Shown: positions 1-34,603, counted from the stretch's first letter. The stretch: 64,000 nucleotides of DNA from a bacterium (GCA_016703265.1 JADJCK010000004.1:205520-269519), one strand, 5' to 3'. The notes: a model not told the origin generated them from the letters alone. Program-made: numbers and translations.

Positions 1-90
1 CGAGCTTCGCGTGCGGTGGCAATCCACGGAGCTGGCCCCGGCAGACAGCGTTTCCGAGTATTTCCGGTTCGACTAGGAACAACACTCGCG

Positions 91-426
91 ATGCGCGCAC
101 GACAGGAAAACATGCGACGTCTGCAGCCCTCGCACTTCACTTCCGCTCTGCCCCTGACTATAGGACGGAGCGAAGCCAACGATATCGTCATCGCTGATGA
201 TTCGATCAGCCGGGTCCATCTTATCGTATCCCGGCTCCGTAGCGGCCGAGTTCTGATCACCGATTGCCAGACGACCAATGGAACGCGCGTGATGGAAGCC
301 GGAAGCGAACGGTCGGTCCACCAGGCGGTGGTTGAAACCGCCACGCTGTTGCAGTGCGGACAGATCCGCTTCCGACTGACAGAGATTCTCTCCCGCTCCC
401 AATCGAAGACAGCCGGGGAGGCCTGA
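91..426 (+). CDS. FHA domain-containing protein (may extend upstream of window)
   Basis: ORF 16..426; first in-frame ATG at 91. FHA signature IGRSEANDIVIADDSISRVHLIVSR...VLITDCQTTNGTRV. Confidence 0.6.
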   Translation: MRARQENMRRLQPSHFTSALPLTIGRSEANDIVIADDSISRVHLIVSRLRSGRVLITDCQTTNGTRVMEAGSERSVHQAVVETATLLQCGQIRFRLTEILSRSQSKTAGEA

Positions 427-466
427 TCGCTTGTCTGTCCTGGCGAAAGGCAGTGGCGGAGAAGCC

Positions 467-1186
467 ATGGCCCTGCTGGTCGGCTGTCTGCTGGCCCTTG
501 CTGTGATGTTCGCCTGGGCCACTTGTCGACTTACGCGCACGCAGCCAAGAGTGCGGTTCATTGATTGCTGCCTTCCGGTCTACGGCAGCATCCTGCTTTG
601 TCGCACTGCTGGGATGGCATCCTGGTGGGGCTGGTTTGCTGTCTTGCCACCGTTGGCGTTCGTCTACGGGTACCGTGTCTGTGGGCGACTGGCCCGCGCC
701 CGCGGCTACAACTACCACTTTTTCGGTTGTCTTGGCGTACTGGGCATCGGGCTCATTGTCCTCGCGATACTCGAGCCCGGTGGAATCGGACATTTGCGCC
801 CGGCCCCCGCCGCCGCCACGGTGCGGTTCGCGGGAAGCCGCCAGGAGCTCGTGGACGCGCCAGGTCTGATCTGCCTTGGTGGGGAATACGAAGGAGGGAT
901 CGTCCCCCTCGACTCACCCGTGGTCGTCGGTAGAGATCCCCGCGCCTGCAATCTCGTGCTACGCTCGGACGCGCTGTCCAGAACCCACCTTCGAGTGGAG
1001 GTTGATGCGCACGGGCAGGTCTTGGTGACGGATCTCGGCTCGCTTTGCGGAAGCCGCCTGCGGCGATCCCGATCCGAAAGTGACATCAGGCTGGAGGCCT
1101 TTCAGAGTCATGTCCTACAGGTGGGAGACTTCGTTTCGTTGGCTGACGGGGCCCAGGTCTTTCGGCTGGTGAACTGTAGTGAGTGA
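467..1186 (+). CDS. membrane protein with C-terminal FHA domain
   Basis: ORF 431..1186; ATG at 467. Four N-terminal hydrophobic segments, then FHA motif (VVVGRDPRACNLVLRSDALSRTHLRVEVDAHGQVLVTDLGSLCGSRL). Confidence 0.65.
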   Translation: MALLVGCLLALAVMFAWATCRLTRTQPRVRFIDCCLPVYGSILLCRTAGMASWWGWFAVLPPLAFVYGYRVCGRLARARGYNYHFFGCLGVLGIGLIVLAILEPGGIGHLRPAPAAATVRFAGSRQELVDAPGLICLGGEYEGGIVPLDSPVVVGRDPRACNLVLRSDALSRTHLRVEVDAHGQVLVTDLGSLCGSRLRRSRSESDIRLEAFQSHVLQVGDFVSLADGAQVFRLVNCSE

Positions 1187-1234
1187 TCATACGGATTCTG
1201 GCGACCGACCGATGGGCGATAGGAGTGTCTGCAC

Positions 1235-1844
1235 ATGATGACCAAATGTCCCAACGGGCATTTCTACGATCCAGCCCGGGAACGCGCGTGCCCCGGCTGT
1301 GCCGCCGTCACTCGCGGCGAGGTCGACACACGCCCCCCTCAATCGCCAGGTGCCGCAGACGCGCGCTTTGCGCGACCCGCAGTCCGGCCTCGTCCCCGAT
1401 TCGGTACCTGAAGCGCGCCACACCGACGCCCAGCACACACCTGCCGGCGCCACCGATCATGCGCGCGAGACCATCGCCTGGTCCCCTGATCGTACGGCAC
1501 ACGGGACTGATCCTGTTGTCGGCTGGCTTGTGTGCGTTGACGGTCCTGAACGCGGACGCGACTTTCGCCTTCACGCGGAGCGCAACTTCAGTGGTCGCGC
1601 AGCGAAAATGGACGTGTGCCTGGCCGCCGATGAGGCGATCTCGCGCAATGCACACCTCATCGTCACTTTTGACCCGCGAACCGCCGCCTTCGCGGTAGTT
1701 CCTGGCGAAGTGCGGGGTATGGTCTACATCAATGGTTCGCCGCTGGCGACCGTTGTCGCCCTTGCAGACCGTGACATCATCGAGTTGGGCAATACGAAGT
1801 TGCTCTTCGTGGCCTTATGCACGGGCGGCTTCACATGGGCGTGA
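1235..1844 (+). CDS. zinc-ribbon + FHA domain protein, frameshifted as assembled
   Basis: ATG at 1235 opens a 58-aa frame (MMTKCPNGHFYDPARERACPGCA..., zinc-ribbon-like) that stops at 1409-1411. The FHA domain (VVGWLVCVDGPERGRDFRLHAE...NAHLIVTF...GMVYINGSPL) lies in a different frame (ORF 1299..1844, GTG start inside the first frame). Same zinc-ribbon + FHA architecture as the ABC protein at 12063..14804. Confidence 0.5.
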
Positions 1845-1932
1845 AAGTCGCGATCTATCGTTCATTTCCTGTATGGCAGGCCGCCCGGATGGCCGCACTC
1901 CGGACCAGTCGTCTACGGAGGTCTTTCCTCAC

Positions 1933-3585
1933 ATGAACCGATTTGATCATCTCGATGAGCTGTGTTCCTGGTGCATGCGCCCGCGCACGGGACCCAGCGG
2001 CATGTGCGCATTCTGTCCGCCAACGCCGCCAACCCAAGACCAGCACCACATGAAAATGCCGACCGGTGTACTCATCGCCGACCAGTATGTAGTCGGCCGT
2101 GTTCTTGGCAAAGGCGGCTTCGGCATTACCTATCTTGGCGCCGACATCAACCTCGGCAACCGCGTCGCCATCAAGGAGTACTTCCCCACGGACCTTGCCG
2201 TCCGGGCCGAAGACCGATTGACGGTGCAGGTGATGTCGCCGACGTGTCGGGATACATACGACTATGGCTTGGAGCAGTTTGCCAGCGAGGCCCGGCGCTT
2301 GGCGAAGTACCAGCGTGTACGCGAGATCGTCACGGTGATCAACTATGTTCGAGAAAACAACACCGGCTATCTGGTAATGGAGTACCTCGACGGACGCACT
2401 CTTGGCGAGTACCTGGCCACTACGGGAGGTGCATTGACCCCGCCTGTGGCCCTGCGGCTGCTCGCGGGAGTTCTCAACGGATTGGAGGCCATGCACGCGG
2501 AGCAGATGCTCCATCGCGACATAAGCCCGGACAACATCTTCATGACCGACGCTGGGGATGTCAAACTCATCGACCTCGGCGCGGCGCGACTTGCTGTGGG
2601 GGGACGGACCCAGAATCTGTCGGTCATCCTCAAGCACGGCTATGCACCGCCTGAGCAATACCACCAGAACGGCCATCAGGGACCATGGACGGACATCTAT
2701 GCGTTCGGCATCACGCTGTATCGGTGCATCACCGGCCAGAACGCACCAGATGCCCTTGATCGGCGTGAATCGGACCGCCTCGACTGGTCGCTCCTGAGTC
2801 GTAGCGGCACCGACCGCGGATTGGTGCGGGCGCTGCAGAAAGCCACCTCGATCGACCCGAAGCAGCGGTACCAGTCGATACGCGAACTCCGGTCCGCACT
2901 CTATCGCAACCCGACGCCAACCGAAGAGCCTGTGCCGGGCCCCACGGTCCTTGCGGAACCGGCTCGAAGGACCACGAAGTTCCCGTGGATCGCAGTAGCG
3001 GCCTGCTGTGTCTTGGCCATTGCCTTGGCTGTGGTTTCGGTAACCGCATATTCTGCGCGTCGGGACCAGCAAACGAAGGAGAAGGAGAGCGCAGACAGGA
3101 TCGCGGCCTTGACCGCGGCCAACGCGGATCTGCGTTGGGTCGCCGAATGCGGAGTCAAGGACACTCACTACTACCGGGAGAACCTCCTGGGCAAGACCTG
3201 GTGGGACTTGGGTGCCCCGCTCCAGTTAGCCAAGTTCCTGGTTAGTCCCACCGCCCCCGTGGAAGACACCCACACCGGCACAAGCCTCAGTGACTCGCTC
3301 CGTGTTCGCGTCGGTGGTCGCAGATCTCCGGGCTTTGGGCATTTGTCCGGCGCCTGGGATCTGCTGTTTCTCCGGCTCGCCCAGCACTCGAACGACCGCG
3401 GCGCGGCCCTGGACAGCTTCGTAGTACCGGTCGAGTTCGGGAACGTGACGAACGAGTTCGACCGGACCTTCGGGCCATACCCTGCCAAGCCCGGACGCTG
3501 GAGTGTGACTCTGCGCTTCACGCCCGCGCACGGCGGTCCCTTGATGTATGTCGACCAGGCGGCCGCAGCAGTGGAGCGGCGTTGA
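1933..3585 (+). CDS. Hanks-type Ser/Thr protein kinase with N-terminal zinc ribbon, one TM helix and C-terminal extracytoplasmic domain
   Basis: ORF 1732..3585; in-frame ATG at 1933 (MNRFDHLDELCSWCMRPRTGPSGMCAFC = Cx2Cx10Cx2C). Kinase motifs GKGGFGITY, AIK, HRDISPDNIF, DLGAA, APE. TM helix FPWIAVAACCVLAIALAVVSV. Confidence 0.85.
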   Translation: MNRFDHLDELCSWCMRPRTGPSGMCAFCPPTPPTQDQHHMKMPTGVLIADQYVVGRVLGKGGFGITYLGADINLGNRVAIKEYFPTDLAVRAEDRLTVQVMSPTCRDTYDYGLEQFASEARRLAKYQRVREIVTVINYVRENNTGYLVMEYLDGRTLGEYLATTGGALTPPVALRLLAGVLNGLEAMHAEQMLHRDISPDNIFMTDAGDVKLIDLGAARLAVGGRTQNLSVILKHGYAPPEQYHQNGHQGPWTDIYAFGITLYRCITGQNAPDALDRRESDRLDWSLLSRSGTDRGLVRALQKATSIDPKQRYQSIRELRSALYRNPTPTEEPVPGPTVLAEPARRTTKFPWIAVAACCVLAIALAVVSVTAYSARRDQQTKEKESADRIAALTAANADLRWVAECGVKDTHYYRENLLGKTWWDLGAPLQLAKFLVSPTAPVEDTHTGTSLSDSLRVRVGGRRSPGFGHLSGAWDLLFLRLAQHSNDRGAALDSFVVPVEFGNVTNEFDRTFGPYPAKPGRWSVTLRFTPAHGGPLMYVDQAAAAVERR

Positions 3586-5974
3586 CGTGACCCCCCGCTC
3601 GAAGCGCCAGGTGGAACAACCGCCTCCACTGCGCCAATGGGACCTCGTCCCCGGCAGCACAGAGCGAATTGGTCCCTTGCGCATCTGTTCTTCGCAGCAC
3701 ATCGGAGGCCGCGAAAGCCAGCAGGATCGGCTCGCCGCGACGGCGCGGATCGGCGATTCTGATGAGCTGGTCACCGTTGTCGCCGGCGTTGCCGACGGAA
3801 TGGGTGGCACGCCTGGTGGCGATCGCGCTGCAGAACAGGCCCTCGCCGCGGCGATGTCCGATGCCATGGAGCTCCCGGAGGAGGCAGCTCCCCCTGCGAC
3901 GCTTCTCAACGCGATCGCTTCGGCACAGCATGCAGTCAAAGCTCTTGGAGAGAGTGAATCCAGTCTTTCCGGAGCCGGGACCACGCTGGCACTGGTCATG
4001 GTTACTGACGGTGACCTGTACTGGGCATCTGTGGGTGACACCTCTGTCTATGTTCTGCGCAATGGCGAACTACTGCGCGCGACGGAGCCGCACCGGGCCG
4101 CGTGGCTGGCGTCGCTCAGTCCGACTGTCGTTGGCCGGGAAAGTCTGCCCGGAAATATCCTCCACAGCTATCTGGGGTCCGACGAGCCTCTTGTTATTGA
4201 CCGCAACCTGTGGCCGTTTCGACTCGCCCATGGAGATCGAGTCCTGTTGGCTACAGACGGTGTCAGCGACACCCTTGCGCGCGCTGACATCGCCAGGTTG
4301 CTGGGCGACTCCGGAGGCGACCCGGCCGACCGGATCGTAGCGGCGGCAGCGGCTCGTGGCGGCGACAGTCAGGACAACGCGACCGCGCTGTGTCTCGATA
4401 ATATGCCACTTACGCGCGGTATATCCCCCCGCAGGCGCATTTTCTGGAGCATTGTCGCCGGGACGGCCGTATTGCTGCTATTCGCACTTGCCATGGCGCT
4501 CTTCCTGCGGTTGACCCACCGCCCGTCTCTCGACCTCGGATCCGCGGTGCCGCGGAATCCAAATGTCGTTTGGGCCTCGGTTTGCCTACTGCGGCGCAAC
4601 TTACCGACTCGCCACCACCGTCGCTTCCTTGCCGCCATTCTGGCACTCGTCTTCTGTTTCGGCCTGCCGGCATCGGCTACCGCGAACGCCGTTGACGAGC
4701 GGACCTTCGCCTCTACCTATCGCATCGTCACCCGCGTTCGGAACGGCAAGGATATCAGGACAGTGACCGGATCCGGATTTGCCATCAACAGCGATGGTTA
4801 TATCGTCACCAACTGGCACGTTGTACCAGGCCAGGATGTTCTGGACATACGAGTGTACTCTCGCGGGGACGAAGCACGTATGCGGGCTGCGCTCGCCGAA
4901 TACCGCCGTACCTCCGACTTCGATGGCGAGTTTGCAAGGACGAAGGACGTCACGAAGCTGCGAGACGACGTAATCGGACCGGCCCTGCTGGCCATTACGG
5001 AAGAGGCTGCAGACGCCAGATTGGTCTGGTTCGATCGAAGTCTGGATCTGGCCCTGTTGCAGTGCTCTGGTGCGAACGATCACGCATACCTCAAACTGGC
5101 GTCACTGAAGGACGTCCGGCCCAATGACGACGTGGTTGTTGTCGGCTATCCGTCCGGCGCCGAACTGGGCAGTCCGGAGGCCATGATCACGGCCAAGGCA
5201 GATGGCGGACATGCACGCGCCACTGAAGACAGCTTGGTGCGTGACGGCTACGCGTACCAAGCCCTGCATTTCGATGCACAGCTCAGCGACGGCAGCAGCG
5301 GCAGCCCCATTCTCAATGGTTGCGGAGCAGTGGTCGCAGTCGCCTCCTATATCATCATCGCCGCACCCGGCGCCGCGTCCAGTTACGGAGTTTCGGCGGA
5401 TCACGTCATCGAAGCTTGCCGAAAGGCCGGCGTACCCTGCGAAGTTGCCGGGCCATGTGACGATCGTGCTGCGCGGTCAAGGGCAACGTGGCTGATAGTG
5501 GCCGGAGTTGTGGCTTCTCTCGCCTTGTCATTAGCCACTCTGCGCCGTCAGCGGCGCGATGGTCGCACGAACGCCGTGGCGGTTCGCGACAGCTACACGA
5601 GCCTCACGAAACGGATTGTGAAACCACATTCCGGCCTAGCGCTGGTCGGCTGCGATCAAGACGGCACCCGCTTGTTTGCGGCCGCGCTTGAGCACCCCCG
5701 AATCGACATCGGGAGCGATACCATCGTCGCCAATCTCGTGGTACAAAGTCACGCGCGCGACATCGATGGTTTGCATTGCGTGATCCACTGGGCGGAGGGC
5801 GACACGACCATTGAGGTCGAGGATTGGTGGAGCCGTACCGGGACCTTCGACCCCAAGGGTAATCGGCTCGAACCGGGTGCACGATGCCGCGTCGGCCGCG
5901 GCGAGTCGTTCAGGATCGCGCGCGTCAGCATTGCATTGGTGTCGGCAGCCGAGGGTGCGGCGGATCGGAACTGA
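3548..5974 (+). CDS. PP2C-type phosphatase / TM / trypsin-like serine protease / TM / FHA-like domain fusion protein
   Basis: 808-aa ORF. N-terminal PPM motifs (GGRESQQDR, VADGMGG, ATDGVSD). TM helices. S1 protease triad context (TNWHVV, DLALLQ, GSSGSPIL). Second TM. C-terminal FHA-like fold (IDIGSDTIVANLVVQSHARDIDGLHCVIHWAEGDTTIEV). Start could instead be GTG at 3587 just after the kinase stop. Confidence 0.8.
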   Translation: MSTRRPQQWSGVDVTPRSKRQVEQPPPLRQWDLVPGSTERIGPLRICSSQHIGGRESQQDRLAATARIGDSDELVTVVAGVADGMGGTPGGDRAAEQALAAAMSDAMELPEEAAPPATLLNAIASAQHAVKALGESESSLSGAGTTLALVMVTDGDLYWASVGDTSVYVLRNGELLRATEPHRAAWLASLSPTVVGRESLPGNILHSYLGSDEPLVIDRNLWPFRLAHGDRVLLATDGVSDTLARADIARLLGDSGGDPADRIVAAAAARGGDSQDNATALCLDNMPLTRGISPRRRIFWSIVAGTAVLLLFALAMALFLRLTHRPSLDLGSAVPRNPNVVWASVCLLRRNLPTRHHRRFLAAILALVFCFGLPASATANAVDERTFASTYRIVTRVRNGKDIRTVTGSGFAINSDGYIVTNWHVVPGQDVLDIRVYSRGDEARMRAALAEYRRTSDFDGEFARTKDVTKLRDDVIGPALLAITEEAADARLVWFDRSLDLALLQCSGANDHAYLKLASLKDVRPNDDVVVVGYPSGAELGSPEAMITAKADGGHARATEDSLVRDGYAYQALHFDAQLSDGSSGSPILNGCGAVVAVASYIIIAAPGAASSYGVSADHVIEACRKAGVPCEVAGPCDDRAARSRATWLIVAGVVASLALSLATLRRQRRDGRTNAVAVRDSYTSLTKRIVKPHSGLALVGCDQDGTRLFAAALEHPRIDIGSDTIVANLVVQSHARDIDGLHCVIHWAEGDTTIEVEDWWSRTGTFDPKGNRLEPGARCRVGRGESFRIARVSIALVSAAEGAADRN

Positions 5975-6021
5975 GCCCTTCCCCCAATGCAGCGGCTCGC
6001 GCGGCGAAACGGAGACGACTC

Positions 6022-6770
6022 TCTTGGAGCTCACCTGTCACTTTGCCAGCGGCCAAACCGCGGGTGACCGCCCGACGATGGAGGATCGCTGCGCTTCAGC
6101 GGGCGACGAATACGGTCAGATCTGGGTGGTTGCCGACGGCCTGGGCGGCCATTCCGGAGGCGCCAGGGCTGCGGAGTTCGTGTGCGGTCGGATCATCAGT
6201 CTCTGGCGAGCGGCAGACGCCGGCGGGCGTGGCGATCTGCCGACACTCGTATCTGCAACCGCGTCGGAGCTGGCGGGCGCAAACGCTTCGCTTCACCGAA
6301 CCGAACGCGGATACAGCACCTGCGTGGTGGCGACATGGGAGGCCGCCAGCGGCCTGATCAGAGTATGCGGAGTCGGCGATACGCGCTGTTACCACGTCAC
6401 AGACGGCGCGATTGAGCTCTGCACGCGCGACGATACAGTCGCTTTCCGCTTTGCCCACGAGATCGGCACGGAACCGGGCGTGCGCGCGCACCCGGACAGG
6501 AACTCGCTGCTGCGCGCGATGGGCTCAGAGATGACCGGAGAGCCGCCGAAGATGCAGATTCTGCAACTTGATGATCGCCGCCAGGGTCTCTTGATCTGCA
6601 CTGATGGCATCTGGGAACATGTGCTGGACGGTGAGATCGCGCTGGATCTTCTCAAGTCGCCCGAAGCTTCCGATTGGGTCGCTTTTCTCCTGCGTCGGGC
6701 CGCAAATGCGGGCGCCAACGACCGTGACAACGCCACGGCCGTTGGCATCATTTGGGCTCCGTTGACCTAG
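6022..6770 (+). CDS. PP2C-family Ser/Thr phosphatase
   Basis: ORF 5811..6770. PPM motifs GDRPTMEDR, VVADGLGGHSGG, CTDGIWE. Start set at TTG 6022, after the upstream stop at 5974; ATG at 6079 would cut into the first motif. Confidence 0.75.
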
Positions 6771-6821
6771 AGGGTCTTCGCTGGCGTAGCCCTGATCCGG
6801 GCTCGCCACGAGCTGTCCGCA

Positions 6822-7253
6822 CTAACTGCCCTGTTTGCCGTCACCCTCGAACTCCAGGGTGAAATCGGCGGCACCCGTGGCGATCGTGATCCCCTCCAGC
6901 AGCACGATTTCGCCACCTCGCGCCTCAACGGTTTGCCATTGGGAGTCCTCAGCACCGACAGGCTTGCGAGCCTGGTCGAGCCAGTTGAACCGGTACCGAA
7001 GCGTCAGCAACTGGGACGACGCATTCCTCACCCGCACCGATGCTCGCATGCGGCCCGCCTCGCGACTCCAGTCGCTCTTGACCACCACGATATCCTGGGT
7101 TGCGAGCGTGGCATCAGCAGTCAACTTGTAGGATTCATAGCGGAACTGCTGTCGAGGGGCGCTCGCACAAGCTGTGAGAACGCTCAGCGCGAGCCCTGTC
7201 ACGACCATGATCGCCGAACGGTAAAACCGGTTCGCTGTTTCAGAATTTCGCAT
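6822..7253 (-). CDS. lipoprotein, possibly YcfL/DUF1425-like
   Basis: Signal peptide with lipobox LSVLTAC. 143 aa, beta-rich. Confidence 0.55.
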   Translation of the reverse strand: MRNSETANRFYRSAIMVVTGLALSVLTACASAPRQQFRYESYKLTADATLATQDIVVVKSDWSREAGRMRASVRVRNASSQLLTLRYRFNWLDQARKPVGAEDSQWQTVEARGGEIVLLEGITIATGAADFTLEFEGDGKQGS

Positions 7254-7262
7254 GTCCTCTTC

Positions 7263-8555
7263 CTATCTGTAGTCAGACACTAGCTTGTCAACCAGGCTCT
7301 TCGTCAGATCAGCATAGCGGCCAGGCCGCGCATCCATGCCGGCGCCCAAACTCAGTTTCATCGGATCGCGGGATCGCTGAATCGCTTTCGAGACAGGCTC
7401 GACGTCGGTATAAAGGACCGCCCCATTCGCATCGACCACCTCAAAACTGCCCTGAACGCTCAGGATGAGTTCGCCTTTGGGGCCTTCCCGCTCCGGAAGC
7501 ATCACCAACCGCAGGTTCACCAGCGCATCGGCAACAACATCAGCGCTTTGATCAGCCCAGCCGTCGATCGCAAAATTGCCTCGCTCCAGCGTCGCCCGGT
7601 GTTCCTGGTGCCTGCGGAGGCCGCTCTCGGCCGGCAGCACGGCCCACGACCTGCGTGAAACCAGCGCCCGCTCGAGGACCTGCCCGGCAGTTTCCACGGG
7701 CAGATTCGCCATTCCTTGATTAGTTCGGTCCTCGACCGTCACCTCACCGATCTGGAGCACGCGTCCCGACAGGAGCGGATCGCGCGCTGAGCTGGCCACG
7801 AAAAGGACATCGCCGACCTTCACCGGCTGGTTTGCCGAAGTCACCTTCACGAAATTGCCTTCGGCACCGACCGAGATCACCCGCGCACCCCCGATCCGCT
7901 CCTGGAAGCGGCCGAGTGTACGGCCGTCCAATCCACGGACTTCGTCGCCGGCGCGCCTGATCTCGAACACCACGCCCGGTCCAACGGCGCCATGATCGAG
8001 TGCAAACTCGGCAGTGGTTCCGTCCAGGGCGCGGATCGAGCCGCTTGCCTGAGCGGGCTCGAATGCAGTCGCAAGGCTGCACGCGGCAGCATGGAGCGCG
8101 TCGCGGGTGGTGCTGGCGAAACGTCCCGCACGCCCGGCGGTCCAGTACCGCGGGTTGGGAACATCGCTGAACGTGTAGTCCTTTCTATACGGATAGGACC
8201 TGCAGAACTGCACCAATCCCGTCCGACAATCGACGATCTCCAACTCGGGCTCCAAGGTGAAGAAGCAGTGGGACTCGCCCTCCGGACCCTTCACCTCTTC
8301 GAGCGTGGCCCGCGCGATACGTACGTTCACAAACAGGTCGGGACGTTCCCGGTTTCCCAGCATCACGTCCGTTGCAACATCGCTGGTGGAGGCTGTCTCA
8401 GCTTGCTGGCGAACCAGGTTGCCGGCCGGAGGCAAGACAGCCAGGTCGGTGTTGCGCAGTAGATAGCTATGAATCCACTCCTGGACGTGTTCGGCGGTGA
8501 CCGTGAACTTGGGATTGCCCAGGAGCGCTTTGGGCAGTTCCGGTCGCGTGACCAT
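7263..8555 (-). CDS. hypothetical protein, operon with flanking lipoprotein genes
   Basis: ORF 7263..8891; start set at ATG 8555 (MVTRPELPKALL...) with GGAAG Shine-Dalgarno upstream. The longer ORF N-terminus overlaps the upstream gene and looks non-coding. Repeated VxVGDxLxV beta-motifs. Confidence 0.45.
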   Translation of the reverse strand: MVTRPELPKALLGNPKFTVTAEHVQEWIHSYLLRNTDLAVLPPAGNLVRQQAETASTSDVATDVMLGNRERPDLFVNVRIARATLEEVKGPEGESHCFFTLEPELEIVDCRTGLVQFCRSYPYRKDYTFSDVPNPRYWTAGRAGRFASTTRDALHAAACSLATAFEPAQASGSIRALDGTTAEFALDHGAVGPGVVFEIRRAGDEVRGLDGRTLGRFQERIGGARVISVGAEGNFVKVTSANQPVKVGDVLFVASSARDPLLSGRVLQIGEVTVEDRTNQGMANLPVETAGQVLERALVSRRSWAVLPAESGLRRHQEHRATLERGNFAIDGWADQSADVVADALVNLRLVMLPEREGPKGELILSVQGSFEVVDANGAVLYTDVEPVSKAIQRSRDPMKLSLGAGMDARPGRYADLTKSLVDKLVSDYR

Positions 8556-9402
8556 CAACGTTGCGCTTCCGGCGCGGACGGTGCGCTTTCTCAAGCTGAA
8601 CCGCGACACCTGTGTACCCCTGGAGGGAGGGATCGCCGCGCGTCGTTCTCGCCAAGCAGAAGCCACTCTGTGCCGAACTGACACACAGCACGCAGTCCTC
8701 ATTGCGGAACATCTGACCCGCGGCGACACCATCGCGAGTGCCGCGGTCAAGAACCACTGAGTCACCGTGCCGCCCCAGGACATTGGCCTGCACACAACCG
8801 GGTGCGTAGTTCGCGGCGATGGTGGCCAACGGACCACCCAGAGTCGTGTCCACTTGCGCTGCGATAGCCGCATCGATGAGCCCGGAAACATCGAAGTCGG
8901 TGCTTTTCGCCTGCACCGGTAGCGTTGTCTCCGCGGTTAGCGACTCGGCGAAACAGACTTCTCCGGTAACGAGATCAAGGAACTCCACCGCACTGCTGGT
9001 CGTCAGAACGTAAGACTTGTTGAGCCGTCCGAGCGTCCACAGGTCGCAGCTCATCCGGGAGAGGTTGCCTCTGATCCAGATCCTGTCGAACGGCGCATCC
9101 ATGCGCACGTTGGTCGGAGATACGCCGGTCGGGACCACCACCGCACTGCCGAGATTCGCCTGCGCGCGTGACGCCATGCGGTCGAAGCAGAACCGCTCCA
9201 GATTACCGCTGTGGCCCACTGCCGACGGGTCGAATGCGTACATGCTGTCGGGACACACCAACTGGAACGGTACGACGACGTCGTACTGGAACGAGTCGCG
9301 ACAGCTCTCGTCCTGAGCCGCAGCATTGGACGCCGCTAGAAGCCACGGCATCAGCACCACAATGGCGAACACACGCAACGCGGCAATATCCATGATGGGC
9401 AT
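8467..9402 (-). CDS. secreted hypothetical protein
   Basis: ORF 8467..9627; signal peptide begins at ATG 9402 (MPIMDIAALRVFAIVVLMPWLLAASNAAAQ). The C-terminal 88 nt overlap the next gene, so a frameshift or earlier stop is possible. Confidence 0.5.
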   Translation of the reverse strand: MPIMDIAALRVFAIVVLMPWLLAASNAAAQDESCRDSFQYDVVVPFQLVCPDSMYAFDPSAVGHSGNLERFCFDRMASRAQANLGSAVVVPTGVSPTNVRMDAPFDRIWIRGNLSRMSCDLWTLGRLNKSYVLTTSSAVEFLDLVTGEVCFAESLTAETTLPVQAKSTDFDVSGLIDAAIAAQVDTTLGGPLATIAANYAPGCVQANVLGRHGDSVVLDRGTRDGVAAGQMFRNEDCVLCVSSAQSGFCLARTTRGDPSLQGYTGVAVQLEKAHRPRRKRNVDGHATGTAQSAPGQSQVHGHRRTRPGVDS

Positions 9403-9460
9403 GACGCCTCTCCTGTTGCGCGACATCCGCGCTCTCGACAAAGATACAGATTTTCGCATG

Positions 9461-10204
9461 TTACGCTCCGAACACCGGCTCAGAGGCATCTTCGACGATC
9501 TTGGGCACCGGCGCTTCCTGGGAGCGCAGGAACTTCCTGGCCTGGTCGAGGAAGCCATACATCTCCTTCGCTTGCCCAGGTATCTGACGAACCATGTCGG
9601 GTACGTCATGCGCGAGGAGGTTGGCAAACGGCCCTATGTACTTGGCTTCCAATACCGCCTGCACGGGGTTGCTCTTGACGCGCTCCAAAGCGACGGGTCC
9701 CGTGCTGGCGACCTTCTGAACCGTCTTTACGGCGGCCACATCAGCAACGACGGCCTGGACCAGTGACTCAAGTGAAGCACCCAAGGACTTCAGTGATTCG
9801 GCGCTGGCCTTTTCCTTCATGTTCTGGGCCTCGACGATTGCTTCGTCGCCATTGATCTTGATTCTCTCTTCGACCTTGCGGACCTGGACGTCCTTCTCCT
9901 TCGTGTCGGGTATCGCCACCGCGGCATCCAGTTCGGCCTGAAGGTCGGCGGCATCCTTCTTTCGTCCGACTGCGGCCACGAGCGAGATCCGGGATTGCGA
10001 CAGGGCGACGGAACCGGCTGTCAGCACGGCGTGGGAGGCGGTGACGTCGTCGATGAGGGGCTTGAGTTCGGACGACCTTCCGCTGTTGGGAAGCACTTTG
10101 TTTGGGTCGATTTTCGTTATCTTTTCCATGGTGGCGCACCCGCCAATCGCGCCCAGTACCGAAATCACTACGCCGAACATGACCATCCTGTTCACGATCT
10201 TCAT
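9461..10204 (-). CDS. alpha-helical lipoprotein, hypothetical
   Basis: ATG at 10204 (MKIVNRMVMFGVVISVLGAIGGC, lipobox). Start overlaps the stop of the upstream gene. Confidence 0.6.
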   Translation of the reverse strand: MKIVNRMVMFGVVISVLGAIGGCATMEKITKIDPNKVLPNSGRSSELKPLIDDVTASHAVLTAGSVALSQSRISLVAAVGRKKDAADLQAELDAAVAIPDTKEKDVQVRKVEERIKINGDEAIVEAQNMKEKASAESLKSLGASLESLVQAVVADVAAVKTVQKVASTGPVALERVKSNPVQAVLEAKYIGPFANLLAHDVPDMVRQIPGQAKEMYGFLDQARKFLRSQEAPVPKIVEDASEPVFGA

Positions 10205-11820
10205 TTCATACCTTCCTGACGGCTTGCGAACACATATTTGATGTTGTTGAATAGGCTGGAGTCTTCTTCGAGAGGCGGAAGACCGGGCTCGTCGCCCAAG
10301 GTTTCTTGGAACTTCCGCTTGAACATCGTGATGCGCCCCTTGTAGGTCAGGTAGACCGTCAAGTGTGCGCTGGCGCGATCCCACTTGCGCTCATCAACGT
10401 CCGATACTGCCGGGGTCTGGTCCAATTGAGCGACCAGAGCGTTCTTGGCCGTCGGACTGGGAACGTCCTCAATCTCCAGAACCAGATGCACGCCATTTTC
10501 GTCGCGTTCGCGAAAATACGTGTGCAGCTGTTCAGCAAGGCGCAACCCGGCCACGGCCCCCAGGCGGGTGGCAGCCCGAAAAGCCGAGCCCTGTGCGGTA
10601 CGATCCGTGCCCGACTCCTGCACGGCGGTCGAGGACAGAATCTCGCCGGAGAAGCAATCGACGATCTTGATCGCCAGCTGGGCTGTCGACCAGTGCATGC
10701 CGTCGTCGGTGACCCCTTCGTAGAGAATGGATGTCGAGCCGACCATTACGGCATCGGCGCCGTACCGCTCACCGGCTACGAGAGCGAACGCGCGCGCATT
10801 CAGATCATTGTCGACCTGGCCAGCCAGGTTCCCTTCGCCGCCGATAAGATACTCGCGGACGGCAATCGTCTCTTCGCTCGAAAGCAGTCGGATGTCGCGT
10901 TCGAGCAGCTTCTCCGAGATTGCGGCGGCACTAGCCGGATCCTGGTTGCGGAACTTCACCGATTCCGGAGGAAAGTATTCGACGCACTTCATGGAGAACG
11001 CTGCCGCATTCATGGAATGTTCGAAATGACTTTCCGTCTGCGCCTCTGCGCTGGCGCCCGGCTTCGACGCCGGCTTGAATTTCCGCAAGCGCTCCATCTC
11101 CGGAATCTCTTTGAGGGCCGGCGCCTGGCGCGGGAACGTTACCTGCGTCCAGCCGGCCGGCAAGGTCCGTGGCGCCTGCGAACCGGCTTGGCCGTCGCGA
11201 CCATTCCGACTGGGCGTCGCGGAACCACCTTCGGCCGGCGTGTTTTTCACATTCAGGTTACCTTTGGAGCTTCCCTCGGTGTGTTCGCTCTGAATCTCTC
11301 CATTCACGACAACGATGCGCTTGACGGGCGGTGTCGCGTCAGGAGCTATATCCGCCTGGAAGTACTCATCGACCAGGACCATGATCGATCGCCGCGATAC
11401 GCGGCCATCCTCGAGACCAGTGCCCTTAATTACTTCTCGGATCTTGTCCATGTTCACTTCACAGGTGATTGTGATGCGGTAGATCTTGTTCTGGTCGTTC
11501 TGGTCGCCCACGATGCGCACATCTTCGACATATCCGGCGGCGGCGCGCAGAATCCTCGTCTCGATGACGTCACGCTGGGACTCAAAGGTCGTCTCACTGA
11601 CATAGCTGCGAACTGCCAGCTCAAGGGCATCGCGGACGGCCGCCGTGCGTGCCGCCTCGAAGGCGCTGTCAATGCTTTCGCGCTTCTTGTTCTGGATCGG
11701 GGCCTCCCCGTACCCCGTGCAGGGCTTGAACTCCGCCCATGCAGCGGCCGGCAAGCCCAGCAGCAGAGCGACCAGCGCGATGCGGACGGTCCAGGTTTGA
11801 CGGTACTTCGGAATGCTCAT
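10201..11820 (-). CDS. secreted hypothetical protein (539 aa)
   Basis: Signal peptide MSIPKYRQTWTVRIALVALLLGLPAAAWA. First gene of the minus-strand operon 6822..11820. Confidence 0.6.
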   Translation of the reverse strand: MSIPKYRQTWTVRIALVALLLGLPAAAWAEFKPCTGYGEAPIQNKKRESIDSAFEAARTAAVRDALELAVRSYVSETTFESQRDVIETRILRAAAGYVEDVRIVGDQNDQNKIYRITITCEVNMDKIREVIKGTGLEDGRVSRRSIMVLVDEYFQADIAPDATPPVKRIVVVNGEIQSEHTEGSSKGNLNVKNTPAEGGSATPSRNGRDGQAGSQAPRTLPAGWTQVTFPRQAPALKEIPEMERLRKFKPASKPGASAEAQTESHFEHSMNAAAFSMKCVEYFPPESVKFRNQDPASAAAISEKLLERDIRLLSSEETIAVREYLIGGEGNLAGQVDNDLNARAFALVAGERYGADAVMVGSTSILYEGVTDDGMHWSTAQLAIKIVDCFSGEILSSTAVQESGTDRTAQGSAFRAATRLGAVAGLRLAEQLHTYFRERDENGVHLVLEIEDVPSPTAKNALVAQLDQTPAVSDVDERKWDRASAHLTVYLTYKGRITMFKRKFQETLGDEPGLPPLEEDSSLFNNIKYVFASRQEGMK

Positions 11821-12062
11821 AGCGAATCACCTTCCCGCGGCAGCGCGGCATGGGTTCGTGGACTGCAGCTCCTCGATCGGGCTGCGGCTTTCAACTGGTA
11901 CAGATGTCGCGCGCAGGCCTGACGTGTGACGGGATACCGGGCGCGAATCATGAGGGGATCAGGTTATCAGATCGAGCCTGCTCGGGGAATCCCTACGGAT
12001 GCGTTCGTGCGCATTGGTGATCGCGTGAGCCCACTTCGTTGACCTGTTATACATCTGCGTGT

Positions 12063-14804
12063 TTATGTTGTCTTTTGGTGCGCCTTACTCCGGCGTCCGT
12101 CCACGCCAACTACCGCGCGAAGCCTGGCATAGGCCAGGATGAGGAAGGTCAACGTGAAAGCAATGAGGACCAGTTCATTCCGCATTAGCGACTCCCCGGC
12201 CAGCGCAAAATCGGGCGGCGACAGAGAGGGCGGGATGGGGCTGCCGTCTACTGGCGCAGGCGTTGCGGGTGCTCGGGAAAGGGCGAAACCGTTGGCGATG
12301 TCCAATCGCTTCAGCAGCGCAAGCATTGACCACTTGAGGGGCGTCAAGAGCGCCAAGACATGTTCCAGCGGCTGTGACCTGACTTCACCGTAGGGCTTGA
12401 GATACCCGGACAACATGAGCTGCGGCACGACGAGCAGAGGAACGAACGAAATGGCGGCAACCTCTGTGGCTACTGCTGCCGAGACGAGCAAGCCCAGTGC
12501 CGCGCCGCACACGGACGTTGTGAACAGCAGACACAGGCCAGCGGGAAGAGTCTCCAAACCAAGCCCGATCCACGGCCAGGTAATGACCACCAGTACCGCT
12601 GTTTGCAACGTCACCAACAGGAGTTGCGGCAGCAACGAAGAGATGAGGTATGCGAGCGTCGAAAGACCCGTCATTCGTTCGCGCATGAAGACAGCGCGCT
12701 CGGCGACGAGTTCGCGGGCGGCATTGCTGCAGCCGAGCCACATGGACACGGCAGACAGCAGGAACATCGCCGGCACCTTGTCTTTCACCAGATCAGACGC
12801 GTCGCCTGGACCGAGACCTGCAAAGATGATCCCGATCAGGAGCGCAATAAACGGCGCCTGTCCCAACTGGAGCCATAGCGCAGCGCGATCTCGACGTCGC
12901 CTGATCAGGCTACGTGCCACCAGACCTGGGATCTGGATCCAGCCGGGTGCGCGCGGCGCCCGACGCGGCTGCGGACAGCTCTGCCGGTAGTGATCAAGAT
13001 CACTCTGCCTTTGTTTGACGAAGGTCTGGAACGTGTCACTCTGGAGATAGGCTTGTCGCCATTCCTCCGGGTCCTGACGCAGTTCTTCTTTTCCGGGCTC
13101 AAGACAGTCCAGCAGGTAGTCGGCCGGATTGACGCCCGGGCGCAGAGGCAGGTGTCCATGCGAGGAGAGATGCTCGACCGCCGCCGTTCCGGAATTCCCG
13201 AAATAGGCCAGCTTCCCGTTCTTGGCGAGCAGAATCAACTTGTCCATCAGTTCGAACACTTCACGGCGGGGCTGGTGAATCGTCACGACGATCGTCTTCC
13301 CCGAGTCGGCGAGGTCCCGTAGGATCTGCATCACCTCAAGCGCTGCCGTGGCGTCAAGACCGGAGGTGGGCTCGTCGAGGAATATCAGGGGCGGCTCGGT
13401 GACGAGTTCGAGTGCGATATTGACGCGCTTGCGTTGACCACCGGAGATTCCTCGTATCCGCTCGCCACCGATCAACGAGTCGCGCACGTGCGCCAATCCC
13501 ATGCGCGTGAGGAGGCGGTCCACGTGGGCGCGCATCTCACCGTCGGGAAGTTGAAGTCTCTGTCGCGCGGTAAAGTAGATCGTCTCGAATACCGTCAAAT
13601 CGCGGTGCATGATGTCTTCCTGGGGAACGTAGCCCATGCGGTCACGAACCGCATCCAGGTTCTCCTCAAGATCGTATCCATTGATCAGAACCTGTCCGCT
13701 CGACGGCGATCGCTGTCCGGTGAGCAGTTCCAACAGCGTGGTCTTTCCGGACCCCGAAGGTCCCATGAGTGCGACCAGCTCACCGGGATAGATACTCAAT
13801 GAAACGGCGTCGAGAATACGTTTGCGCTCGCGGCCGGTATCGATTTCGCGACATACATTGATGGCATCCAGGCGTACGGCGCTGTGATGGGGACGGATCG
13901 CGTCACCGGCCCGACCAGAGAGCCGTATCCGCACAGGACCGAGCGCCAATTCGTCAGCGGCCCCGATGACGGCCTGGCGGATCGGGTCCCCATTGACAAA
14001 GGTCCCGTTGCTGCTGCCTAGATCGTGAACCTCCCAGGCGCCACCCCGAGCGACGATGCGCGCGTGGTGCCAGGACACCAGGGGATCGTCAACGACGACA
14101 TCGCATTCCGGGGCCCGACCAAGGAGCACTTCGCCGTCGGTGGGTACGGTGGCAGTGAACGCGGTCGAATCCACCCCGGCCTTGGGCATTGCCAATTGCT
14201 GGGTCCAGGCGGCAATCGTCGCCGGTGGAATTCGATACGACCCCAGCGTCAGGTTGCTGCCGGTCGGAATCTCCAGCGGGGATGTCGCCGGCACCCCATT
14301 GACCTGGGTTCCGTTCTTGCTGCCGAGGTCAAGGACCAGCAACCGGCCGTCCTCGGTCCAGATCTCGGCATGTCGCGCGCTGACATCCGGATAGGGAACA
14401 ATCAGGTCCGCCGGGGGTTCGCGGCCGATCGTTAGCCGTGCACCCGAAGGTGCGGTGAGTAGCTTCGCGACGATATTTCGAATCTCGAACGGCCGGATGC
14501 CGATCTGGATGACTTCGTTGAGTCCGACGGTAGTCTCGGTAATGCGCCGGCCGGCCACGAAGGTCCCATTCGTGCTGTCCAGATCCTTGACGATATAGCG
14601 GCCGGGCGCCCTATCGCGCCGGATTTCGAGATGCTGCCTTGAGATATGGCGGTCTTCGAGAACAACATCGCAACCTTCACCACTACCGACCAGGAGCGCG
14701 GCCACGGGCGCCTCGATTTGGCCTGCGCCGGAAACGTCGCTGCCGCACCGTGCGCAGCGACCGGCATTGGCTGGAACGCGCGCATTGCAAGTGGGGCAAT
14801 GCAT
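12063..14804 (-). CDS. zinc-ribbon + three FHA domains fused to an ABCG/White-type ABC transporter (ATPase + ABC-2 permease), Rv1747-like
   Basis: N-terminus MHCPTCNARVPANAGRCARCG. Three FHA motifs (...SRQHLEI...DLDSTNGTFV; ...ARHAEI...LGSKNGTQV; ...WHHARI...LGSSNGTFV). Walker A GPSGSGKT, signature ISGGQRKR, Walker B IFLDEPTSGLD. C-terminal six-helix ABC-2 membrane domain. Confidence 0.85.
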   Translation of the reverse strand: MHCPTCNARVPANAGRCARCGSDVSGAGQIEAPVAALLVGSGEGCDVVLEDRHISRQHLEIRRDRAPGRYIVKDLDSTNGTFVAGRRITETTVGLNEVIQIGIRPFEIRNIVAKLLTAPSGARLTIGREPPADLIVPYPDVSARHAEIWTEDGRLLVLDLGSKNGTQVNGVPATSPLEIPTGSNLTLGSYRIPPATIAAWTQQLAMPKAGVDSTAFTATVPTDGEVLLGRAPECDVVVDDPLVSWHHARIVARGGAWEVHDLGSSNGTFVNGDPIRQAVIGAADELALGPVRIRLSGRAGDAIRPHHSAVRLDAINVCREIDTGRERKRILDAVSLSIYPGELVALMGPSGSGKTTLLELLTGQRSPSSGQVLINGYDLEENLDAVRDRMGYVPQEDIMHRDLTVFETIYFTARQRLQLPDGEMRAHVDRLLTRMGLAHVRDSLIGGERIRGISGGQRKRVNIALELVTEPPLIFLDEPTSGLDATAALEVMQILRDLADSGKTIVVTIHQPRREVFELMDKLILLAKNGKLAYFGNSGTAAVEHLSSHGHLPLRPGVNPADYLLDCLEPGKEELRQDPEEWRQAYLQSDTFQTFVKQRQSDLDHYRQSCPQPRRAPRAPGWIQIPGLVARSLIRRRRDRAALWLQLGQAPFIALLIGIIFAGLGPGDASDLVKDKVPAMFLLSAVSMWLGCSNAARELVAERAVFMRERMTGLSTLAYLISSLLPQLLLVTLQTAVLVVITWPWIGLGLETLPAGLCLLFTTSVCGAALGLLVSAAVATEVAAISFVPLLVVPQLMLSGYLKPYGEVRSQPLEHVLALLTPLKWSMLALLKRLDIANGFALSRAPATPAPVDGSPIPPSLSPPDFALAGESLMRNELVLIAFTLTFLILAYARLRAVVGVDGRRSKAHQKTT

Positions 14805-15044
14805 GGGCTCACCCTTTCTCGTCTCGGTTCAGGTGCCGCTACCGGGCAAGAGCGGCGCGGATCGTAGTGTCCGTAATACGGGCTATAGCCGTTTGCTTGG
14901 CGAGTAGGATTCCATATTGACCGTGTCCCGTCAACGCGAATGGGCGCCGCGAACGGCCAGCACTGTCTGGGGCTCTGCCGGGGCACACATTCATTGATAC
15001 TGTCGTGATCGTCATCCCCTGCAGGATCGCGACAGTTGGTGCGA

Positions 15045-15440
15045 TCATGCGCTCGGGGAAACGATTCCAGGAACAACAACGCCGGACTGAGATTCCTGAT
15101 ACGGGAAGGGCTGGTCTCCCCGGACCTGCGCCACGCCGGCATAGTCGGCCCGATTCCGCTTCCCCGCCCGGATCGGCAGCAGCATAAGGCCGATGGTTCC
15201 GGCTATCGCGCCATACCGGAAGTACCGCCAGAACCGGGCACGGGAGAAAGTAGCGCTGCGTTCCAGCGCGCCACGAAGCTCCAGCGCGACGGGATCGTCC
15301 GCATCGCGAAGGCTCAGAACACCGGGCTCCATGGCGATGAGAATGTGCAGGTCCCTTGTATGCGCCCGCGACGCCGCCGACGCGCTGCAGAGACAGAACA
15401 TGCTCGTGGCGATGAAGAGAAGGGATATCATCCGTACCAT
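15045..15440 (-). CDS. small secreted/membrane hypothetical protein
   Basis: ATG at 15440 (MVRMISLLFIATSMFCLCSASAASRA signal peptide). Lies within the longer ORF 15045..15767. Confidence 0.4.
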   Translation of the reverse strand: MVRMISLLFIATSMFCLCSASAASRAHTRDLHILIAMEPGVLSLRDADDPVALELRGALERSATFSRARFWRYFRYGAIAGTIGLMLLPIRAGKRNRADYAGVAQVRGDQPFPYQESQSGVVVPGIVSPSA

Positions 15441-15538
15441 AGTGGCGTCCTCGTCATGGTTCTTGCCGCCAGGGACCTGGTGGCCCCGCAAGGGCCGTCG
15501 AGAGGCCCCTGCGGAGCGGGTTGAGGCAATGACATTTG

Positions 15539-17555: not shown

Positions 17556-17578
17556 GGCTTCTCTCTGCTCTGGTGGCC

Positions 17579-34440: not shown

Positions 34441-34603
34441 CATGTCGGTCTTCGTCAGCATCTGTGACAAAAAGCGCGAACCGCAGCCAGGACCGGCAAC
34501 GTTGACCTCCCTTTCCGCACAACAACGGACCCGCAGTCGCGATAACGACGCTATCGCCGAAGGAGACCGCGCAGAATTCATGAGGCTGTGCGCGGTTTGT
34601 CCT

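Follow-up and report, generated by a model that had tools for sequence, protein, structure and literature searches.

Does a zinc ribbon that recurs at the N-terminus of functionally linked phospho-signalling proteins represent one shared tag, or do several ribbons, each belonging to its own protein family, meet at a single locus? This question is raised by a 64,000-nucleotide stretch of bacterial DNA (GCA_016703265.1, JADJCK010000004.1:205520-269519), the whole of which is referred to below as the window. The first 6.8 kb of the window contain a gene cluster encoding a Ser/Thr kinase, PP2C-type protein phosphatases and several proteins with forkhead-associated (FHA) domains, and an ATP-binding cassette (ABC) exporter that also contains FHA domains is encoded further downstream. 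The original prediction was that the kinase, one FHA protein and the exporter carry the same N-terminal zinc ribbon (ZnR) of the form Cx2Cx10Cx2C, and that this common tag hints at a common localisation or assembly determinant. The link between ribbons and phospho-signalling proteins is found to be real and general, but it does not take the form of a single shared tag. In the best explanation, the window holds a copy of a Ser/Thr phospho-signalling cluster that is widespread across phyla and in which the ribbons would serve as docking modules; taken with all of its parts, this explanation has about an even chance of being correct.

Gene content of the cluster

The core of the cluster consists of a ribbon-bearing receptor kinase, a GarA-like ZnR-FHA adaptor, two distinct PP2Cs and a membrane protein combining a trypsin-like protease with FHA, and accessory FHA proteins are encoded alongside. 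An Rv1747-like exporter of the FHA-ABCG type is a neighbour of this core in the source genome. The genes concerned are the following.

16-426, plus strand: small stand-alone FHA protein, open reading frame (ORF) of 136 amino acids (Pfam FHA, E=1.2e-11)
431-1186, plus strand: membrane-anchored FHA protein with two predicted transmembrane (TM) segments and an FHA domain at the C-terminus (Pfam FHA, E=5.8e-8)
1235-1411, plus strand: 5' piece of the adaptor gene, zinc ribbon and start of the linker, 58 codons (family profile positions 4-51, E=1e-13)
1299-1844, plus strand: 3' piece of the adaptor gene, Pro-rich linker and FHA/YscD-type domain (Pfam; family profile positions 35-195)
1332-1337, plus strand: run of six C, site of the frame change within the adaptor gene (pairwise comparison of the window with the sibling contig L045)
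1732-3585, plus strand, start ATG 1933: receptor-type Ser/Thr kinase (Pkinase, E=5.5e-32)
3548-5974, plus strand: ORF of 808 amino acids with PP2C, trypsin-like protease and FHA (Pfam PP2C_2, Trypsin_2, FHA)
5811-6770, plus strand: second, stand-alone PP2C, 'type b' (Pfam PP2C_2, E=4.4e-12)
12063-14804, minus strand: ZnR-3xFHA-ABCG-type exporter, 913 amino acids (Pfam: three FHA, ABC_tran, ABC2_membrane)

Six consecutive plus-strand ORFs had been described at the start of the window, namely FHA, TM-FHA, ZnR-FHA, ZnR-kinase, PP2C-protease-FHA and PP2C, and their order and domain content are borne out by Pfam. The ZnR-FHA gene is not the single ORF it had been taken for, as the ribbon (1235-1411) and the FHA domain (1299-1844) are read in different frames. 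None of the cluster proteins has an NCBIfam match above the cut-off.

Conservation of the zinc ribbons

All three ribbons are present in the DNA, in two different forms. The kinase product starting at ATG 1933 opens with MNRFDHLDELCSWCMRPRTGPSGMCAFC and carries Cx2Cx10Cx2C as predicted (nucleotides 1963-2016; ligands C11, C14, C25 and C28). The same spacing is found at the N-terminus of the exporter, MHCPTCNARVPANAGRCARCG, at nucleotides 14745-14798 (ligands C3, C6, C17 and C20), with the correction that this gene lies on the minus strand. The adaptor ribbon, MMTKCPNGHFYDPARERACPGC, occupies nucleotides 1247-1300, and an AGGAG-like site is located upstream of its ORF. Its pattern is Cx3Hx9Cx2C rather than Cx2Cx10Cx2C, and a His residue is the second ligand (C5, H9, C19 and C22).

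Conservation was assessed in the 120 best matches each for the adaptor, the kinase and the ABC protein. As to the suspicion that the Cys motifs are absent in orthologues, they are kept in homologues of all three families, to differing extents: CxxGH...CPxC stands at the N-terminus of 115 of the 120 adaptor homologues and CxxC...CxxC at the start of 107 of the 120 kinase homologues, and 41 of the 120 ABC homologues have the motif. Among the 35 closest ABC homologues, 25 start with a ribbon and three more begin in the middle of it. The four ligands are invariant in the family alignments of the kinase and ABC ribbons (A2, A3) and of the adaptor ribbon (A4, A6, A7). A second suspicion, that the annotated starts lie downstream of the ribbons, is correct for the FHA and ABC genes and not for the kinase. 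The deposited FHA protein (MBK6734064.1, 164 amino acids from GTG 1350) and ABC protein (MBK6734073.1, 880 amino acids from V34) leave the ribbon out, whereas the deposited kinase (MBK6734065.1) includes it; public gene calls for the source genome thus trim the ribbon from two of the three proteins. Since homologues carry the ribbons, the longer forms of the proteins are favoured, and the ribbons are conserved coding sequence rather than chance clusters of Cys residues. In a census of about 59 non-overlapping ORFs of at least 100 amino acids in the window, four contained such a motif, which was N-terminal only in the kinase and the ABC protein; the third N-terminal ribbon of the window is encoded by the short split ORF at 1235-1411.

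Family alignments and profile-profile comparison resolve the proposed single tag into three family-specific signatures.

Kinase ribbon: [LI]CxGC[MF]-x9-CPxCG[WFY]; Cx2Cx9Cx2C in 65 of 91 distinct sequences, the x10 form seen in the window in 17
ABC ribbon: CxxCG-x-[RK]FCGxCG; Cx2Cx10Cx2C in 35 of 41; PF13240 (Zn_Ribbon_1) type
Adaptor ribbon: RCPxGH[FY][FY]D-x6-CPxC; Cx3Hx9Cx2C in 81 of 87

In profile-profile comparison, the kinase and ABC ribbons matched with a probability of 92%, the ABC and adaptor ribbons with 69%, and the kinase and adaptor ribbons with 58% over nine columns; these similarities between 25-column profiles mostly reflect the positions of the metal ligands. When the N-terminus of the ABC protein was searched alone, it reached 23.5 bits with PF13240 (cut-off 25, E=4.5e-5) and 20.4 bits with DZR (PF12773; cut-off 27.3), and its homologues P0251, P0252, P0255 and P0360 have precomputed PF13240 matches. 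The kinase and adaptor ribbons had no match in the local copy of Pfam, which does not include PF26443. Many adaptor homologues have a precomputed match to PF26443, which may be a recent Pfam model for the adaptor ribbon or for the Pro-rich linker. Both ribbons are modelled with confidence by AlphaFold2 (predicted local distance difference test, pLDDT, about 90-94), in different predicted settings: the kinase ribbon lies near the N-lobe in a single-body model and the adaptor ribbon at the end of a disordered linker.

It is very probable that the ribbons are genuine, conserved and family-specific domains, putatively zinc-binding, of a conserved cluster. Judged from their sequences, they share a fold class and are not copies of one tag; they are old, built-in domains of their families and not a tag shared within the genome. 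Several of these observations also suit the explanation that the ribbons have no shared function at all, being promiscuous N-terminal modules which each family acquired independently, so that their co-occurrence would reflect domain promiscuity and family ancestry. The three signatures and spacings, one of them with a His ligand, the weak similarity between profiles, the different structural contexts and the lack of the ribbon in 13 of 120 kinase and 79 of 120 ABC homologues are all in line with it. This explanation is weighed again below, with the gene neighbourhoods.

Ribbon-bearing kinase

The kinase contains a single TM segment (residues 353-371) that separates the ribbon and catalytic domain from a C-terminal domain of about 180 amino acids, for which no Pfam or NCBIfam family, vWA included, scored above threshold. 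The best solved relative of the kinase domain is PpkA (5hnv, E=4.2e-45, compared with 4e-24 for PknB), and PpkA also ranks first in a Foldseek search, with a TM-score of 0.88 normalised to the target. The AlphaFold2 model of residues 1-340 has a pLDDT of 89 and a predicted template-modelling score (pTM) of 0.87.

This model bears on the explanation that the ribbons act in cis, as redox- or metal-sensitive caps tuning the adjacent kinase or FHA domain in the way envisaged for the rubredoxin-like domain of PknG. The ribbon of the kinase is predicted about 15 residues from the first kinase strand (beta-1), at a pLDDT of about 90 within the single body, and a Bryobacteraceae orthologue has the PknG-like order of ribbon, kinase and TPR. 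In PknG, the metal-binding Cys domain directly adjoins the catalytic core (PMC8546545). A PknG-like rubredoxin arrangement of the kinase ribbon was nevertheless rejected, as the fold search gave no support: PknG is absent from the 50 best fold matches of the kinase model, which resembles PpkA and PknB. In the adaptor, the ribbon is parted from the FHA domain by a disordered linker (pTM 0.56), which argues against a fixed cis arrangement there. Action in cis is considered improbable.

Split adaptor gene

The two adaptor pieces match one and the same family profile, at positions 4-51 and 35-195, and are thus the two halves of one gene; a search with the joined query returned proteins of about 200 amino acids that span ribbon, linker and FHA domain in a single chain. 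The elements of this family are RCPxGH[FY][FY]D..CPxC, a Pro-rich linker, the FHA core DPVVGWLVC..GP.RGRDFRL and a C-terminal C..[FY].W. All four occur in the window, distributed over two frames, and all four occur in one ORF in the contig L045 (JAHZTJ010283864.1, 2,985 bp) of the sibling assembly GCA_020051655.1. This contig, which was reached via cluster membership and protein P0121, is 99.87% identical to positions 1212-4197 of the window and encodes an intact ZnR-FHA adaptor of 202 amino acids (P0361). Exact searches of the contig index for the 913-amino-acid ABC ORF and for P0001 gave no match. A version of the window with five C at 1332-1337, where the window has six, translates as ...GEVDTRPLNRQVPQTRALRD..., the same as P0361. 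The split can be put down, from this comparison, to a homopolymer indel, which may be either an assembly error or a strain-level lesion. Programmed frameshifting was rejected, because a near-identical contig carries the intact ORF.

Four differences separate the window from L045 over 2,986 bp, and every one of them is non-silent. In addition to the frameshift, the window has an I to S change at position 1591, in the nearly invariant NFIGR of the adaptor FHA domain; at position 2391 the two kinases differ by an E/D exchange; and at position 3209 a TAG codon in L045 cuts its kinase into 425 and 108 amino acids, whereas the kinase of the window is intact (550 amino acids). Each copy is therefore broken where the other is intact. 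A run of four differences comprising a frameshift, two amino acid exchanges and a nonsense change, near an IS3-type transposase gene, could indicate that the cluster is a decaying, non-functional remnant in the source organism, in which case its recurrence elsewhere would have no present meaning there. The lesions of the two copies are different ones, however, the frameshift sits in a homopolymer and is a typical assembly error, and all other ORFs of the cluster are of good length, uninterrupted and conserved in their catalytic and ligand residues. Decay is accordingly given little credence.

The adaptor family is large: clustering at 50% identity gives 2,022 clusters for a threshold of E<=1e-30, and 4,732 when this is relaxed to E<=1e-10. 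In the AlphaFold2 model of the intact protein P0361, the ribbon (residues 1-20) has a pLDDT of 94, the linker (25-90) about 50 and the FHA domain (91-195) above 92. The linker comprises about 65 disordered, Pro-rich residues and includes a Thr (T79) that is kept in 46 of 50 sequences. The FHA domain is closest to those of GarA, OdhI and FhaA both in sequence and in fold.

A different output has also been considered, in which the adaptor ribbon is a nucleic-acid-binding domain and the phosphorylated ZnR-FHA protein acts directly on transcription, as has been suggested for zinc-finger variants of EsrG and for ArnA in Saccharolobus islandicus. Zinc fingers are among the commonest partner domains of FHA output proteins in the Esr preprint, where direct transcriptional control is suggested (PMC13622651), and ArnA is described as a global repressor in another report (PMC10470591). 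The structural study of ArnA, by contrast, found no DNA binding and showed the ribbon occupied by ArnB (PMC12852372). Pfam recognises no DNA-binding domain in the adaptor, whose single ribbon measures about 20 residues, and DNA binding is implausible for modules of this type on a membrane kinase and an ABC transporter. A role in nucleic acid binding is thus very doubtful, more so than any of the other alternatives.

Related gene clusters in other phyla

Clusters with related gene content were found in several bacterial groups.

L039/L040, Bryobacteraceae: ZnR-FHA, PP2C, trypsin-FHA, PP2C, kinase-TPR
L041, Syntrophomonadaceae: kinase, PP2C, trypsin-FHA, PP2C, ZnR-FHA, vWA-FHA
L042, unclassified metagenome-assembled genome (MAG): FHA, MotA/ExbB, unknown, ZnR-FHA, PP2C, PP2C, kinase
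L043, Synergistes-type contig: ZnR-FHA, vWA-FHA, TM2-FHA, trypsin-FHA, kinase-Sel1
L047, JGI contig: three kinases, ZnR-FHA, two PP2C, vWA-FHA

The kinases of all these loci open with a ribbon, and ZnR-adaptor and ZnR-kinase occur together in every related locus examined (L039/L040, L041, L042, L043 and L047). In BLASTP comparisons, the window and the related loci match component by component, including two separable types of PP2C. Clusters that combine ZnR-FHA, ZnR-kinase and one or more PP2Cs, and usually a protease-FHA protein too, are found repeatedly in Acidobacteriota, Firmicutes and Synergistota. A search of the GTDB representative genomes with the PP2C-protease-FHA protein returned only distant relatives of the protease domain (at most about 30% identity), and the 38 loci of that search (L001-L038) contain neither ZnR-FHA nor ribbon-kinase genes and had no value for the synteny comparison.

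A contig of a Blautia sp. MAG (L046, GCA_034118325.1; positions 1-17563) contains at least seven tandem ribbon-kinase paralogues. The first 65 or so residues of these proteins are nearly identical (MDVNKLCFGCMKEKENPGQRCPYCGFD...), whereas their C-termini vary in length and several include Sel1 repeats. The locus resembles a receptor-kinase array that has undergone diversification.

Of the ABC homologues with a readable context, the two closest are encoded in operons of ZnR-3xFHA-ABC, vWA-FHA, PP2C, ZnR-FHA and M48 peptidase genes. One of these loci, L044 (13613-15813), encodes an FHA protein with two ribbons, first CxxC-x10-CxxC and then the adaptor-type CDNGH...CPYC, and the M48 peptidase encoded by the next gene likewise has a zinc ribbon at its start. 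An M48 peptidase gene is present in the window as well (32944-34581, minus strand), and its product has no ribbon.

These neighbourhoods bear on the explanation that the ribbons are independently acquired modules with no common function. It is favoured by the ribbons on the M48 peptidase in L044 and on an unrelated small ORF in L043. Against it, ZnR-adaptor and ZnR-kinase are adjacent in all independent related loci examined, and the ribbon is nearly invariant over seven tandem Blautia kinase paralogues with differing C-termini. N-terminal ribbons are also enriched among signalling genes in the pooled loci (10 of 28, compared with 3 of 42 flanking genes; Fisher p=0.004), a figure that is inflated because the loci were chosen via ribbon proteins. 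An absence of shared function is unlikely on balance, although it is the strongest of the alternatives considered here.

Exporter and its surroundings

The exporter contains three FHA stretches followed by ABC_tran (residues 331-481) and ABC2_membrane (626-831) domains, and the relatives of its core in the PDB and NCBIfam are of the ABCG/White type. The surrounding genes are as follows.

6822-11820, minus strand: five genes downstream of the exporter on its strand, one of them DUF1425
16728-17555, minus strand: IS3-type transposase (rve/HTH_21), just past the exporter
18289-21162, plus strand: second Ser/Thr kinase, 957 amino acids, after the IS3 element, without an N-terminal zinc ribbon

The exporter and the kinase cluster are convergent on opposite strands about 5 kb apart, with the five genes between them. 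The gene of the ribbon-bearing kinase lies about 8.5 kb from the ABC gene, and the insertion sequence and the second kinase are on the other side of the exporter. Apart from the DUF1425 (YcfL-like) protein, the products of the five genes have no Pfam or NCBIfam match, and several of the maximal ORFs overlap their neighbours. Gene content here is unlike that downstream of the ABC homologue in L044. By their position, the five genes could be members of the system, and their products may be cargo or partners of the exporter.

PP2C, protease and accessory FHA proteins

The 808-amino-acid ORF has sub-threshold NCBIfam matches to Stp1 and MarP. BLASTP relates its N-terminal part to the PP2C that comes first in the other loci ('type a') and its C-terminal part to the trypsin-FHA proteins. 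Type a PP2C and trypsin-FHA are encoded by separate adjacent genes in L039 and L041, compared with the single ORF in the window; a protease-FHA gene is missing from L042, which has the type a PP2C, and is present in L043, for which no PP2C is listed. At the junction, a first TM segment (residues 302-320) is followed by a signal-peptide-like segment (360-378) with an AxA-type site after it. Were both segments to cross the membrane, the protease would lie in the cytoplasm and the FHA domain outside it, an implausible arrangement. The ORF may be a real fusion whose topology is unusual, may contain an internal start, or may have lost a stop codon.

The stand-alone PP2C at 5811-6770, the true start of which is probably downstream of 5811, finds its best BLASTP matches in the second PP2C of L039, L041, L042 and L047. 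The small FHA protein at 16-426 is 36% identical (BLASTP) to the product of the small FHA gene that heads L042; its true start is uncertain, and the cluster may continue upstream of the window. The hydrophobic segments of the membrane-anchored FHA protein at 431-1186 correspond to residues 12-30 and 96-114, and it is matched best by TM2-FHA from the Synergistes locus L043.

Comparison with known systems

The closest characterised precedent for the adaptor is ArnA, the one ZnR-linker-FHA protein with a characterised structure, of the ArnA/ArnB/ArnC system, which controls the archaellum in Sulfolobus acidocaldarius (PMC12852372; PMC6509490). The zinc ribbon of ArnA (C21, C24, C35 and C38) binds unphosphorylated ArnB, as seen in a 2026 co-crystal structure, and after phosphorylation by ArnC the FHA domain of ArnA binds phospho-ArnB (PMC12852372). 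The layout of ribbon, disordered linker and FHA domain matches the AlphaFold2 model of P0361, and the Arn module, like the cluster of the window, is under the control of a Hanks-type kinase and a phosphatase. A further likeness is that in L041 and L043 the ZnR-FHA gene is followed immediately, with an overlap, by a vWA-FHA gene, and that in L047 it shares a cluster with one. The differences are that the ArnA ribbon has four Cys ligands (Cx2Cx10Cx2C) and the bacterial adaptor ribbon is Cx3Hx9Cx2C, that the bacterial cluster has an additional kinase ribbon, two PP2Cs and a protease-FHA membrane protein, and that the phosphatase partner in the Arn module is PP2A and not PP2C. The adaptor is not regarded as a member of the ArnA family, because a sequence relation to ArnA is undetectable. 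The resemblance is one of analogy.

The model for the exporter is Rv1747 of Mycobacterium tuberculosis, an FHA-ABC exporter activated by PknF through phosphorylation of linker threonines (PMC3138270). In both proteins an N-terminal FHA part is fused to an ABC nucleotide-binding domain and an ABC-2 membrane domain, with a Ser/Thr kinase encoded nearby, and by analogy control via phospho-threonines in the FHA linkers would be the obvious model for the exporter of the window. The latter differs in having three FHA domains versus two in Rv1747, in carrying a ribbon with which Rv1747 is not described, and in having the Ser/Thr kinase outside its operon, unlike Rv1747 and PknF. The kinase domain in the window is PpkA-like.

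The closest solved catalytic domain belongs to the PpkA/PppA/Fha1 pathway of type VI secretion, in which a membrane kinase also acts with a PP2C and an FHA adaptor. We know of no description of an N-terminal ribbon in PpkA. PpkA-type kinases are recognised by a periplasmic vWA domain and linkage to type VI secretion genes; in the C-terminal region of the kinase of the window no vWA match reached the threshold of Pfam or NCBIfam, and no type VI secretion families were matched among the window ORFs scanned, in a scan that was not exhaustive.

With GarA and OdhI of Actinobacteria, which work with PknG and PknB (PMC8546545), the adaptor shares the closest FHA domain and a disordered N-terminal segment with a conserved Thr as a potential ligand of the FHA domain once phosphorylated. 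GarA has no zinc ribbon, unlike the adaptor. PknG is a soluble kinase, its rubredoxin-like domain is not among the kinase fold matches, and a metabolic target is not evident in the window.

The Esr threat-sensing pathway (EsrE kinase, EsrF phosphatase and EsrG FHA output; PMC13622651; 10.64898/2026.01.23.701218) likewise has a kinase/phosphatase pair acting on an FHA output protein with a variable N-terminal domain that is often a zinc finger. It is grouped here with the vWA-kinase-FHA-PP2C operons of Actinobacteria and Deinococcus, and kinases fused to zinc ribbons beside PP2C and vWA genes have been noted in comparative genomics (PMC7159879). In comparison with Esr, the cluster of the window lacks MoxR, vWA and beta-propeller sensor genes and adds a protease-FHA protein, two types of PP2C and an FHA-ABC exporter.

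A cluster of this kind, with kinase, PP2C and FHA genes, is already known, and its parts come from families abundant in the databases. For the particular combination of ZnR-FHA, ribbon-kinase, two PP2Cs and protease-FHA, no description was found in the literature, which is weak evidence since most subscription journals were outside the search.

An anti-phage defence system was considered as well and rejected. The PADLOC matches were to generic kinase, protease, PP2C and ABC domains, with none at the level of a system.

Proposed function of the ribbons

In the proposed mechanism, the kinase would be switched on via its C-terminal domain beyond the single TM segment and would phosphorylate the linker Thr of the adaptor (T79) and the linkers between the FHA domains of the exporter. 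FHA domains would then bind these phospho-threonines in cis or in trans, by which the exporter and the protease protein would be assembled or activated, and the two PP2Cs would undo the phosphorylation and reset the system. The ribbons would provide small, weak docking surfaces that bring the components into position beforehand, independently of phosphorylation, in the manner of the ArnA ribbon with ArnB. As an alternative or in addition, the kinase ribbon may form a rigid accessory to the N-lobe.

The ArnA ribbon is a phosphorylation-independent tether to ArnB, and this fits the 'assembly determinant' of the original prediction; it is by this precedent, and by analogy, that docking is supported. 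Partner docking is accordingly put forward as a tentative role for the ribbons, one with somewhat less than an even chance.

Several points weigh against the cluster acting as described. ArnA (5a8i) has no significant sequence similarity to the adaptor (E=0.099, over the FHA part only), and its partner ArnB is a vWA protein, of which there is no gene in the window cluster according to Pfam. The TM pattern of the 808-amino-acid fusion is hard to square with a cytoplasmic FHA domain, and in the window the exporter is connected with the kinase cluster by position only. The ribbons are dispensable in relatives, being absent from the above minority of kinase homologues and from most of the more distant ABC homologues. 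Finally, this copy may be decaying, given the frameshift and the exchange at a nearly invariant FHA position in the window and the premature stop in the sibling kinase.

Other genes in the window

Genes for RNA repair and modification are concentrated between about 27800 and 59700.

27807-28649, minus strand: Thg1-like guanylyltransferase
34963-36201, plus strand: RtcB ligase
38784-39941, minus strand: RtcB ligase
50798-51742, minus strand: NADAR
51793-53052, minus strand: SpoU methylase
57316-58683, minus strand: CCA-adding/poly(A) polymerase
58720-59733, minus strand: NIF3

Two paralogues of about 250 amino acids that are 41% identical (36413-37183 and 54880-55632, both minus strand) have an internal CxxC-x12-CxxC and no Pfam match. 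Both genes lie inside the RNA repair and modification region, and some 200 bp separate the first from the RtcB ligase gene (34963-36201), downstream of which it lies. A protein of 1,056 amino acids (24423-27593, minus strand) combines HDOD/HD, a WD40 beta-propeller and a calcineurin-like phosphoesterase.

Significance

To our knowledge, networks of Ser/Thr kinases, FHA proteins and PP2Cs are abundant in bacteria, and how their partners recognise one another before phosphorylation is mostly unknown. The cluster type described here has N-terminal ribbons on the kinase and the presumptive adaptor, and in many cases neighbouring FHA proteins, an FHA-ABC exporter or a peptidase carry them too. Should the ribbons not be docking modules, this is a correct but routine observation on domain architecture. 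If they dock as in ArnA, they would offer a mutable handle for mapping the wiring of the pathway, by means of Cys-to-Ser mutants and ribbon swaps.

A more far-reaching and improbable extension is a 'ribbon code', in which each ribbon would bind a defined surface on another cluster member (kinase, PP2C, protease-FHA or exporter), so that the components would pre-assemble at the membrane before phosphorylation and the binding of FHA domains to phosphothreonine would only switch the state of the assembly. Such a code, if true, would generalise the two-step switch of ArnA and ArnB to a multi-component system in bacteria, and it would amount to a new and very widespread envelope-signalling machine, extending from soil Acidobacteriota to gut Firmicutes with their tandem ribbon-kinase arrays.

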